Shown here in pieces: positions 2,779-49,424 of a stretch of DNA of 64,000 nt. Origin of the DNA: Escherichia coli (GTDB taxonomy: Bacteria > Pseudomonadota > Gammaproteobacteria > Enterobacterales > Enterobacteriaceae); NCBI RefSeq assembly GCF_003790525.1, contig NZ_CP033635.1, one strand, 5' to 3'. Both the position numbers and the translations under genes were made by a program. Every line of letters begins with the position of its first letter. Positions within the stretch are counted from its first letter, which is position 1. Below the pieces are notes generated by a model that saw nothing but the letters and a program-made list of their open reading frames with translations, was not told where the DNA came from and did not search any database.

Positions 2779-3276
2779 ATGCTGAAACCAGAAATGATTG
2801 AAAAACTTAATGAGCAGATGAACCTGGAACTGTACTCTTCACTGCTTTATCAGCAAATGAGCGCCTGGTGCAGCTATCATACCTTCGAAGGTGCTGCCAC
2901 GTTCCTGCGCCGCCACGCCCAGGAAGAGATGACGCATATGCAGCGTCTGTTTGATTATCTGACTGATACCGGCAACTTACCGCGTATTAATACCGTTGAA
3001 TCTCCGTTTGCTGAATATTCCTCACTTGATGAATTATTCCAGGAAACCTATAAACACGAACAATTAATCACGCAGAAAATTAACGAACTGGCTCATGCTG
3101 CAATGACCAATCAGGACTACCCAACATTTAATTTCCTGCAATGGTATGTTTCTGAGCAGCATGAAGAAGAGAAACTGTTCAAATCGATTATTGATAAATT
3201 AAGCCTGGCAGGCAAAAGCGGCGAAGGTCTGTATTTTATCGACAAAGAACTCTCTACCCTCGACACACAAAACTAA
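2779..3276 (+). CDS. ftnA: ferritin FtnA (iron storage)
   Basis: ORF 2764..3276; internal ATG at 2779 gives 165 aa [30 protein letters not shown]..., ferritin family. Confidence 0.9.
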
Positions 3277-3280
3277 TGCT

Positions 3281-3310
3281 CTCCGGCGGCAGGTTTACTG
3301 CCGCCGTTTC
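3281..3310. terminator. terminator hairpin ctccggcggcag..ctgccgccg followed by TTTC, between ftnA and yecH
   Basis: GC-rich inverted repeat directly after ftnA stop. Confidence 0.55.
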
Positions 3311-3313
3311 AAA

Positions 3314-3553
3314 TCAGTGACGGCAAATCTTACTCTGATCGGTCGAAAAACCGTCTTCCGAAGGTATAAATTTGCCTTTTGCTGCCAGAAACGCTACCAG
3401 CTCTCCCGCAGTCATCCCTTCTGCCGAGCAGGTGTGAAAACGTGCCTGTTCACCAAAACGCGCTTTAATCGCAGCTTCCAGACTGGCATGCGTATATTGC
3501 TCGCCTGATTCAATCATCATATTTAACACTTCATGACCGTGAATAGAGTCCAT
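3314..3553 (-). CDS. yecH: DUF2492 family protein YecH
   Basis: 79-aa ORF MDSIHGHEVLNMMIESGEQYTHASLEAAIKARFGEQARFHTCSAEGMTAGELVAFLAAKGKF... Confidence 0.8.
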   Translation of the reverse strand: MDSIHGHEVLNMMIESGEQYTHASLEAAIKARFGEQARFHTCSAEGMTAGELVAFLAAKGKFIPSEDGFSTDQSKICRH

Positions 3554-43747: not shown

Positions 43748-44668
43748 ATGCGTTTCCGCCAGTTGTTACCGCTTTTTGGCGCGCTGTTTGCGTTGTATAT
43801 CATTTGGGGCTCAACCTATTTTGTCATTCGGATTGGCGTGGAAAGCTGGCCTCCGTTAATGATGGCAGGCGTTCGATTCCTGGCAGCCGGTATTTTATTG
43901 ATGGCATTTTTGCTACTGCGCGGACACAAGCTCCCCCCGCTACGTCCGCTGCTCAATGCCGCGCTGATTGGCCTGTTATTGCTGGCTGTCGGTAATGGCA
44001 TGGTGACGGTTGCCGAGCATCAAAATGTTCCTTCCGGCATCGCCGCCGTTGTGGTTGCAACCGTGCCCCTCTTTACCCTGTGCTTCAGCCGCCTGTTTGG
44101 CATTAAAACGCGCAAACTGGAATGGGTGGGTATCGCCATTGGGCTTGCCGGAATCATCATGCTCAATAGCGGTGGAAATTTAAGCGGCAATCCGTGGGGC
44201 GCGATTCTGATTTTAATCGGCTCGATTAGCTGGGCGTTTGGCTCGGTTTATGGCTCGCGCATTACCTTACCTGTAGGGATGATGGCGGGTGCTATTGAGA
44301 TGCTGGCGGCAGGCGTGGTGTTAATGATCGCGTCGATGATTGCAGGTGAAAAACTGACGGCGCTCCCTTCCCTTTCAGGCTTCCTTGCGGTCGGCTATCT
44401 GGCGCTGTTTGGTTCGATTATCGCCATCAACGCTTATATGTATTTAATCCGTAATGTCAGTCCGGCTCTCGCCACCAGCTACGCCTACGTTAACCCGGTG
44501 GTCGCGGTCTTGCTGGGTACGGGACTGGGCGGAGAGACGCTGTCGAAGATTGAATGGCTGGCGCTCGGCGTAATTGTCTTCGCGGTGGTGCTGGTCACGT
44601 TGGGAAAATATCTCTTTCCGGCAAAACCCGTAGTTGCGCCAGTTATTCAGGACGCATCAAGCGAGTAA
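43748..44668 (+). CDS. yedA: EamA/DMT family transporter
   Basis: 306-aa ORF with two EamA-type repeats of transmembrane helices. Confidence 0.85.
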   Translation: MRFRQLLPLFGALFALYIIWGSTYFVIRIGVESWPPLMMAGVRFLAAGILLMAFLLLRGHKLPPLRPLLNAALIGLLLLAVGNGMVTVAEHQNVPSGIAAVVVATVPLFTLCFSRLFGIKTRKLEWVGIAIGLAGIIMLNSGGNLSGNPWGAILILIGSISWAFGSVYGSRITLPVGMMAGAIEMLAAGVVLMIASMIAGEKLTALPSLSGFLAVGYLALFGSIIAINAYMYLIRNVSPALATSYAYVNPVVAVLLGTGLGGETLSKIEWLALGVIVFAVVLVTLGKYLFPAKPVVAPVIQDASSE

Positions 44669-45127
44669 ATGAATCCCCTGCGTGTCGATCTGCGCGCTGG
44701 CACCTTCGCCGCAGATCCACTCTTCCAGACGCTCGCTAAGCGCTTCATCCGTCAGCTTCTCGCGCCCACGTAACGCGCACTCCCAGACAATCAATACGCG
44801 CCAGCCGAGTTCCTGCAAGCGACTGATATCGCGGCGATCGCGCTCAACATTTTTACCTATCTTCTCCAGCCAGAACTCGGTTCGAGTCGCAGGCACTTTA
44901 AACAGATAGCAGTGATGATGATGCCAGAAGCAGCCGTGGGTAAATATCACGCAGCGATATTCATCAACGACAAAATCCGGGCGTCCGGGCAGACTGGCGT
45001 CCTGAACGCGAAACGCCAGGCCCTGCCCGGTTAACAGACTGGCGAGGCGCTTCTCTATCGCCGTATCACGCGTGGCAATCGCGCGCATATTTTTGCTGCG
45101 AGTGGCCTTATCGTGAACGTCGGCCAT
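44657..45127 (-). CDS. vsr: very-short-patch repair endonuclease (G/T mismatch-specific)
   Basis: ORF 44657..45289; internal ATG at 45127 gives 156 aa [28 protein letters not shown]...; start lies inside the 3' end of dcm. Confidence 0.9.
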
Positions 45128-46526
45128 GTTGTGCCTCTTGCTGACGCAACGCCACCGCCTGTTTGATTTTTGGCTCAAGCAGTTTTGCCACCGCGGCAAA
45201 GACCGGCACGACCACCGAGTTACCGAACTGGCGATAGGCCTGAGTGTCCGAAACCGGAATGCGGAATTTCGCTTCTCCCGGCGCTTCAAAACCCATTAAG
45301 CGCGCGCATTCACGAGGCGTTAACCGACGTGGACGATGTTGCTGATTCTGCGGATCGTCAAAGTCTTTCTCACCCGTGGCCATATCCCAGCCACGATCGA
45401 TTAAAATTTCCGCGCCATCTTTGTAATAACGCGCAGACAGCGTACGGGTGACGCTTTGCGGATTGTTCGGATAAACCATTCCATAACCGAAGCCGTTACC
45501 GCGCGCCTGATGTTTTTTCGCATATCGATAGAGGTACTTCCACAGCACCGGCGTCAGGATATATTTCGCCTCGACCATCGGGTCCAGCAGCTGCGCCAGC
45601 GTCACTCGCTGCGCAGGGAAACATTCGCTGATATCACGCAGGGTAAAATCGGCTTTCAGATTCAGATCGCGACGAAAACCCACCAGCACGATGCGTTCAC
45701 GGTGCTGCGGCAGAAAATGTTTGCCGTCGATGATTTTCGGATCGTCTGGCCCGTTATCTTCTGCATCAGCCACGTCATAGCCCAGTTCGTCCAGCGTCTG
45801 CATGATGATGCGGAACGTTTTACCCTGGTCGTGACTTTTCAGGTTTTTGACGTTTTCGAGCACAAACATCGCCGGACGACGCGCGTCGATAATGCGTACC
45901 ACATCAAAAAACAGCGTGCCCTGGGTATCGCAGGCAAAACCGTGCGCCCGCCCGAGCGAGTTCTTTTTCGATACGCCAGCCAGCGAAAATGGCTGACAAG
46001 GGAAACCGGCCAGTAAAACATCGTGTTCAGGAATGTGTTGACGAATATGTTCCGCCGCCGCCTCATCACTCACGCCTTCTTTATGGCTGAGGGTGATATC
46101 GCGGATATCTTCATTAAAATGATGCGTCGCCGGATCGCAATAATGGTTGGCTTTATAAGTGCGTACCGCATGTTTGTTCCATTCGCTGGTAAACACGCAT
46201 TGTCCGCCAATCGATTCAAAACCGCGACGGATGCCGCCAATTCCGGCAAATAGATCGATAAAGCGAAACGCATAATGCGGATGATGTGCCGGTGGTTTGG
46301 GTAACAACGTTTGCAGATGGGCGAACTCTTTCTCACTTAAACGGTGCCATGCCGAGTCATTCGCCAGCGCACGTTTTAAAATTGCCGCGCTCCAGTGATT
46401 CTCACCCACACCATTAAGCTGCGCCACCAGCGTTTTAACATCATAAATTTGCAGCAGTTTCTCCAGCATTGCCTGTGCGGCATTCCCGGTGCTGTATGAA
46501 TCGGTTACTGATATATTTTCCTGCAT
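45108..46526 (-). CDS. dcm: DNA cytosine-5 methyltransferase (CCWGG)
   Basis: 472-aa ORF with C5-MTase motifs FAGIGG (motif I), PCQPFS (catalytic motif IV), ENV (motif VI). Confidence 0.95.
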
Positions 46527-46592
46527 AGATTTAACCGGCCATCTGAGATGGCCGACAGGTTAACATAATTACAGCCATTTAGGGCCACGCGC

Positions 46593-47711: not shown

Positions 47712-47859
47712 GACTCACTCATTTTTTGAACAAATAGATAATTTTTGCGCAACGGCAGTGAATACAGGAAAAATCGTTTTGAGCGATTTTATTTATCTTT
47801 GAGATCGGCTTTATTAATTCATTTAATCAATATATTAGCACTGAATACAATTATACCTT

Positions 47860-47948
47860 TTTATTTTTCTGTGTCATGATGCCTCCGTTATTAGCCTTTT
47901 ATCGTCTTGTTTATATTTTTTGGGCCGGCATGATGCCGGCTTTTTTTT
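47860..47948 (+). ncRNA. rseX: candidate small RNA in the yedR-yedS intergenic region, possibly RseX
   Basis: Strong intrinsic terminator gccggcatgatgccggc + TTTTTTTT at 47924-47948 on + strand with no upstream protein gene; -10-like ttatac about 70 nt upstream; the rseX assignment is from memory of its reported location. Confidence 0.45.
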
Positions 47949-48260: not shown

Positions 48261-49424
48261 ATGAAAAGAAAAGTTCTGGCAATGCTGGTCCCGGCGTTAT
48301 TAGTTGCTGGCGCAGCAAATGCGGCTGAAATTTATAATAAAAATGGCAATAAACTGGATCTGTACGGAAAAGTTGATGCTCGTCATACTTTTTCCGATAA
48401 CCCTGGCGATGACGGCGATGAAACTATCATCGAGTTAGGCTTCAAAGGTGAGACCCAAATTACAGATCAGTTAACTGGTTATGGTCAAGCACTGACCAAA
48501 ACAAAGGCTAGCGACACTGAAGGTTCTGATAATACTTATGTCAAACTTGCTTTTGCAGGTCTGAAGTTCGGCGAGATGGGCTCCTTTGACTATGGTCGTA
48601 ACTATGGTGTGATTTACGACGTTGAAGCCTGGACAGATATGCTTCCTGTATTCGGCGGCGACTCCTATACCTGGACTGATAACTTCATGGCAGGCCGTGC
48701 AAATGGGGTAGCTACTTACCGCAATAGTGATTTCTTCGGTCTGGTGGAAGGTCTGAACTTTGCATTGCAGTATCAAGGTAACAACGAAGGCAGCAATGCA
48801 GGAGAAGATCAAGAAGGTACTAAAAATGGTCACGAAGACGTTCGCTTCCAGAACGGTGATGGTTTTGGTCTTTCCACTTCATATGACTTTGACTTCGGTT
48901 TGAGCTTAGGTGCCGCTTACTCAAACTCTGACCGTACCAATTCTCAAGTAGCTCTTGGCGGGTATCACTACAATGAATACAGCAAATTTGCTGGTGGTGA
49001 TACAGCTGAAGCATGGACATTTGGTGCAAAATACGACGCCAACAATGTTTATCTTGCAATGATGTATGCTGAAACCCGCAATATGACACCATATGGTAAT
49101 GTGGGTATCGCAAATAAAACCCAGAACTTTGAAGCTGTAGCACAGTATCAGTTCGATTTTGGTCTGCGCCCATCTCTTGCATATGTTTATTCAAAAGGCA
49201 AAGACCTCGGCGGTAACGACTATAACAACAATGGTCATCAAGAGTATGTTGATCAGGATCTGGTCAACTATGTTGAAATTGGAGCGACCTACTATTTCAA
49301 TAAGAACTTCTCAACATATGTTGACTATAAAATAAACTTGTTGGATAAAGATGACGATTTCTATGACAACAATGGCATCGCAACAGATGACGTTGTTGGT
49401 GTGGGCTTAGTCTACCAGTTCTAA
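48261..49424 (+). CDS. yedS: OmpC/OmpF-family general porin, intact reading frame
   Basis: ORF 48192..49424; ATG at 48261 gives 387 aa with signal peptide [21 protein letters not shown], porin beta-barrel ending in C-terminal ...VGLVYQF. Confidence 0.85.

Follow-up and report, generated by a model that had tools for sequence, protein, structure and literature searches.

The overlap between dcm and vsr of Escherichia coli is already known: it has been described since the early 1990s, the paper by Sohail et al. (1990) reportedly being an early one on the subject and that of Dar & Bhagwat (1993) being said to describe the overlap in its title, and the RefSeq annotation is identical. The target of methylation by Dcm is CCWGG, and where the resulting 5-methylcytosine deaminates to leave a T/G mismatch, Vsr nicks the DNA 5' of the mismatched T (PMC3467078, PMC2715241). 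The sequence-only reading that we followed up had described the overlap as known biology, and this agrees with the statement that dcm partially overlaps vsr (PMC4444293, citing Dar & Bhagwat 1993).

The closest described system is that of E. coli K-12 MG1655, where dcm (b1961, 2030899-2032317) and vsr (b1960, 2030448-2030918) have the same order, the same lengths and the same 20-nt overlap in the +1 frame as in the DNA analysed here, a stretch of 64,000 nucleotides (the window) of an E. coli chromosome (NCBI RefSeq assembly GCF_003790525.1, contig NZ_CP033635.1). The neighbours are also the same (drpB and yedJ upstream, yedA and yedI downstream) and the junction sequence is identical, the differences being strain-level polymorphism: Q393 versus L393 in Dcm, S135 versus T135 in Vsr and a few synonymous changes. 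The dcm-vsr pairs of Salmonella enterica and Klebsiella pneumoniae, whose orthologues were taken from chromosome fragments misfiled in a plasmid collection, likewise have an overlap of 20 nt, the same N-terminal Vsr sequence, and yedA as a convergent neighbour. They differ from E. coli close to the vsr start, the upstream vsr frame being closed by a TAG in Salmonella, whereas in Klebsiella additional ATGs lie 1 and 3 codons upstream and Vsr has 164 aa.

More distant pairs are found on plasmids, in the methylase-Vsr operons of Pseudomonas syringae pB26-2, Aeromonas media pE31B and Burkholderia sp. THE68 p2, in which vsr lies immediately 3' of a cytosine-5 methylase gene. The Vsr proteins of these three operons are 46-48% identical to the E. 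coli protein and have the same N-terminal Met, and the stop and start codons of the two genes overlap. However, the overlap of the plasmid pairs is of 1 nt (TGATG) and has no Shine-Dalgarno (SD) sequence, as opposed to 20 nt in E. coli, and two of the three plasmid pairs belong to a full restriction-modification system whereas the Dcm of E. coli is solitary. On the Pseudomonas and Aeromonas plasmids, vsr overlaps its neighbours on both sides, by 1 nt at the 5' end and 4 nt at the 3' end (positions 2501-2947 in both loci, L005 and L006), which indicates that vsr is embedded there in a complete restriction-modification system.

In the window, dcm, encoding the DNA-cytosine (CCWGG) methyltransferase, extends on the minus strand from an ATG at 46526 to a TAA at 45110-45108 (45108-46526; 1419 nt, 472 aa), and vsr, encoding the very-short-patch (VSP) T/G mismatch endonuclease, extends on the same strand from an ATG at 45127 to a TGA at 44659-44657 (44657-45127; 471 nt, 156 aa). 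Dcm matches the Pfam families DNA_methylase (PF00145; 3.3e-77, 260.5 bits for a cut-off of 22) and DNA_meth_N (1e-19) as well as the Dcm subfamily model NF007772 of NCBIfam (953 bits for a cut-off of 710). The conserved motifs of m5C-methylases are FxGxG (I), PCQ (IV), ENV (VI), QxRxR (VIII) and GNSV (X), and the Dcm translation contains FAGIGG, GFPCQ, LENV, QHRER and GNSV. Since 471 of its 472 residues are identical to those of K-12 Dcm, its specificity is presumably CCWGG. Vsr matches PF03852 (1.2e-39, 134.4 bits for a cut-off of 27) and TIGR00632 (182.7 bits for a cut-off of 97.85, model positions 1-119 aligning to residues 1-118), and 154 of 155 residues are identical to the crystallised E. 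coli Vsr (PDB 1CW0, chain A), the sole difference being S135 in place of T135 (156-aa numbering). Its translation holds Asp51 and His69, which we take to be the catalytic residues from the 1VSR and 1CW0 structures, together with the presumed zinc ligands Cys66, His71, Cys73 and Cys117 and the presumed intercalating residues Phe67, Trp68 and Trp86. The near-identity to the K-12 enzyme suggests that Vsr would nick the T/G mismatch in the CTWGG/CCWGG context (PMC2715241, PMC3467078).

The whole 1870-nt dcm-vsr stretch is 100% identical to that of E. coli SMS-3-5 and of several other strains, and was matched in 5367 of 5426 complete E. coli genomes (59 were without a match and 9 more had a partial match only). 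Positions 1-57709 of the window correspond to the reverse complement of SMS-3-5 with 99.98-99.99% identity, and the genes follow the expected order, with drpB and yedJ before dcm and vsr, and yedA and yedI after them. Judged by its sequence, the pair is thus the reference system itself, one residue away from K-12 in each protein, and we hold it highly probable that the locus is the ordinary chromosomal dcm-vsr pair of E. coli, with no unusual trait in this copy.

The two genes share 20 nt on the minus strand (45108-45127) when the dcm stop codon is counted, 17 nt of which are dcm sense codons. These values, obtained from the ORF list and from the sequence, coincide exactly with the dcm end, the vsr start and the overlap of about 20 bp given by the sequence-only reading, which had also correctly placed the vsr start within the 3' end of dcm in another frame: vsr is in the +1 frame relative to dcm, the A of its ATG being the second base of dcm codon 467. 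The junction sequence caaGAGGcacaacATGGCCGACGTTCACGATAAg is read QHGRRSR* in the Dcm frame and MADVHDK in the Vsr frame, the overlap proper encoding (H)GRRSR* and MADVHD(K) respectively, and vsr codons 6 and 7, Asp6-Lys7 (GAT AAG or GAT AAA), supply the three letters of the dcm stop TAA. The same 20-nt overlap is annotated in SMS-3-5, K-12 MG1655, two divergent E. coli, Salmonella enterica and Klebsiella pneumoniae, and comparison with the RefSeq annotations of K-12 and SMS-3-5 gives a Vsr of 156 aa and a Dcm of 472 aa, as anticipated. Within the overlap, the few substitutions between genera are located at the third position of vsr codons, corresponding to the first position of dcm codons. The Vsr reading MADVHDK is invariant in E. 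coli, Salmonella and Klebsiella, whereas the Dcm tail varies (QHGRRSR, VDGGRSR and NDGGCSR). We infer from this pattern that the overlap is the dcm frame continuing into a constrained vsr 5' end. Deletion of the first 14 residues of Vsr diminishes both endonuclease and VSP repair activity (PMC2715241), in agreement with a constraint on the Vsr reading in the overlap while the Dcm tail drifts.

The ORF track gives for vsr a longer reading frame, of 210 aa (44657-45289), and the sequence-only reading was justified in calling its 54-codon N-terminal extension misleading; the codon at 45289 is however a TTG and not the ATG that it had reported. Upstream of 45127, the vsr frame contains no start-like codon other than three TTGs (45289, 45199 and 45178), and the first in-frame ATG is that at 45127. 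A start at one of these TTGs would lengthen Vsr by 54, 24 or 17 residues, and two features could speak for it: in both E. coli and Klebsiella no stop interrupts the frame over the 56 upstream codons, and SD-like sequences lie 5' of 45199 (-5.8 kcal/mol) and of 45178 (-5.1 kcal/mol). TTG 45289, in contrast, is without a Shine-Dalgarno sequence (-0.9 kcal/mol). The open frame itself is to be expected by chance, since 5000 synonymous-codon shuffles gave runs of at least 56 codons in the vsr frame upstream with P = 0.27; elsewhere in dcm, this frame stays open over further runs of 88, 76 and 58 codons. In Salmonella, this upstream stretch contains three in-frame stops, one of which is the TAG immediately 5' of the vsr ATG.

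The substitution pattern points in the same direction. In the 162 nt 5' of the vsr ATG, substitutions fall at dcm position 3 in 24 of 41 cases for Salmonella and 28 of 47 for Klebsiella, dcm position 3 being position 2 of the hypothetical vsr extension, whereas in the vsr body (from 20 nt past the ATG) they fall at vsr position 3 (71/103 and 74/128, respectively). Across the 54 codons, amino acid identity in the dcm frame is 0.83 with Salmonella and 0.76 with Klebsiella, against 0.46 and 0.44, respectively, in the vsr frame. The 54-aa extension peptide gave no family match in NCBIfam, and with the 210-aa ORF as query the Pfam, NCBIfam and PDB matches all begin at residue 56. With the 156-aa protein, position 1 of the Pfam Vsr model falls on residue 2, position 1 of TIGR00632 falls on residue 1, and the 1CW0 chain begins at Ala2; the Vsr N-termini of Salmonella, Klebsiella and the distant plasmid homologues likewise align to the Met at 45127. 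Five independent lines of evidence thus place the vsr start at ATG 45127. The stretch of 54 codons from TTG 45289 (45128-45289, minus strand) is the 3' end of dcm read out of frame and does not belong to vsr, and we reject it as an extension: it is a chance open frame, stopped in Salmonella, substituted in the manner of dcm and matching no family. As a conserved feature, a start at an upstream TTG is effectively refuted, and we give such a start next to no chance of being the one used.

The position of vsr in the +1 frame of dcm also allows, by its geometry only, that the source of Vsr activity is a Dcm-Vsr fusion produced by +1 ribosomal frameshifting in the overlap. Against this stand the conserved ATG and an N-terminus common to stand-alone Vsr proteins, the absence of an evident slippery motif in the 20-nt overlap, and the fact that a separate Vsr protein of 155-156 aa has been crystallised and is active (1CW0; PMC2715241). 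In addition, dcm is gone from E. coli CM13 except for its last 72 nt (a partial pseudogene), and vsr is nevertheless annotated there as intact, with the overlap (NZ_CP114893.1; positions 3000-3522 of locus L010). That a frameshift fusion is the source of Vsr activity is therefore extremely unlikely. The CM13 arrangement looks like an engineered dcm deletion that spared the vsr start. A minor extended isoform of Vsr starting at TTG 45199 or 45178 (in E. coli and not in Salmonella), or a rare +1 frameshift fusion of Dcm and Vsr, has nothing in its support and is also very improbable; if real, it would physically link the methylase and repair functions.

To account for the expression of vsr, the signals around its start were considered together with published data. 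A SMRT-Cappable-seq study placed yedR (drpB), yedJ, dcm and vsr in the same operon. On the gene strand, our promoter scan revealed no sigma-70-like site close to dcm or, within dcm, upstream of vsr, which is consistent with transcription from further upstream. A GAGG Shine-Dalgarno-like element (45134-45137, minus strand) lies within dcm codons, 6 nt 5' of the vsr ATG (-10 to -7). Its duplex with the anti-SD reaches -5.8 kcal/mol, a value equalled or beaten at 7.9% of the positions of the locus, so that an independent initiation of vsr from its own usable SD is possible. According to this explanation, vsr would be translated independently from GAGG-ATG and the overlap would be a by-product of gene compaction without a role in coupling, the dcm frame simply running to its first stop, which the conserved Asp6-Lys7 codons of Vsr happen to provide. 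The variable Dcm tail opposite invariant Vsr residues is in agreement with it and resembles a tolerated read-through of dcm, all the more as the Pfam methylase domain already ends at residue 448 of 472. The restriction of VSP repair mainly to stationary phase (PMC2715241) also fits independent translation.

Several data are in opposition to independent translation of vsr. The overlap length is constant in the three genera despite an SD strength varying from -5.8 kcal/mol in E. coli to -5.3 in Salmonella and -3.3 in Klebsiella, and the distant plasmid methylase-vsr pairs have the TGATG junction without SD, which is the classic termination-reinitiation arrangement. Both observations argue for a coupling of vsr to dcm. 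Furthermore, no vsr activity is left when codon 45 of dcm carries the dcm-6 nonsense mutation (PMC4444293), as coupling would predict; Rho-dependent transcriptional polarity could explain this loss equally well. Together with the shared operon, the dcm-6 phenotype gives indirect support to the coupling named in the sequence-only reading. The mRNA structure around the vsr start lends no support to a structure that ribosomes translating dcm would need to open, the 140-nt fold being no more stable than its shuffles (z = -0.92). On balance, we consider that vsr translation is most likely coupled to the ribosomes that finish dcm, whereas independent translation of vsr, including the chance origin of the dcm stop that it entails, appears unlikely without being far-fetched.

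The coupling of vsr to dcm could operate as follows. Dcm methylates the inner cytosine of CCWGG, T/G mismatches arise when this 5-methylcytosine deaminates, and the nick made by Vsr 5' of the mismatched T starts very-short-patch repair. vsr is the last gene of a drpB-yedJ-dcm-vsr transcript, and since its start codon and GAGG both lie inside dcm codons, no ribosome completes dcm without passing them. Synthesis of Vsr would then depend on dcm translation, through ribosomes that terminate on dcm and re-initiate about 17 nt 5' of its stop and, alternatively or in addition, through an opening of the vsr site by ribosomes translating dcm. Coupling is probably not the whole story, since Vsr protein is, unlike Dcm, reportedly low in growing cells (Macintyre et al. 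1999). Stationary phase is where VSP repair mainly takes place, and the expression of Vsr is said to require regulation (PMC2715241), which shows a control in addition to coupling.

Other features were observed around the pair. At its distal end, vsr (minus strand) meets the convergent gene yedA (plus strand, 43748-44668), and the 3' ends of the two share 12 nt (44657-44668), which leaves no space between them for a terminator of either gene; a convergent vsr/yedA overlap is also annotated in Salmonella (12 nt) and Klebsiella (26 nt). A terminator-like hairpin followed by a T-run is present on the plus strand at 45069-45095 (hairpin 45069-45085), antisense to vsr codons 14-20 approximately and about 400 nt past the yedA stop. 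As a yedA terminator this hairpin was discarded, because it does not form in the minimum free energy folding of the antisense strand, and it is probably due to chance. On the other side, a perfect 9+9 palindrome, CGGCCATCT-C-AGATGGCCG (46536-46554, minus-strand sense), lies 9 nt 5' of the dcm ATG, occupies the expected ribosome-binding position and is predicted to form a stable hairpin. It was found in all the E. coli examined and is absent from Salmonella and Klebsiella; it could stabilise the mRNA, serve as a processing site after yedJ or slow the translation of dcm.

Further away, Rfam models detected the small RNAs DsrA (105 bits; 39437-39522, minus strand) and RseX (96.7 bits; 47858-47947, plus strand), both at the expected places relative to dsrB/rcsA and drpB. 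The porin gene beside drpB (approximately 48261-49424, plus strand; named ompC by PGAP) is intact in the window and in SMS-3-5, and frameshifted with an internal stop in CM13. The identity with SMS-3-5 stops at 57709, inside the tRNA-Ser(CGA) gene (57648-57737), beyond which SMS-3-5 has prophage tail-fibre and IS3 remnants and the window has a tRNA-Asn (58729-58804). The tRNA-Ser(CGA) gene thus appears to be a strain-variable site of prophage integration.

Beyond annotation hygiene, the dcm-vsr overlap matters little. Where the longest ORF is taken as the gene, vsr is called 54 codons too long, reaching into dcm, and the comparison with Salmonella settles the true start. For the bacterium, the proposed coupling would mean that a cell placing the mutagenic methyl mark on its DNA also produces some of the enzyme needed to repair the damage.
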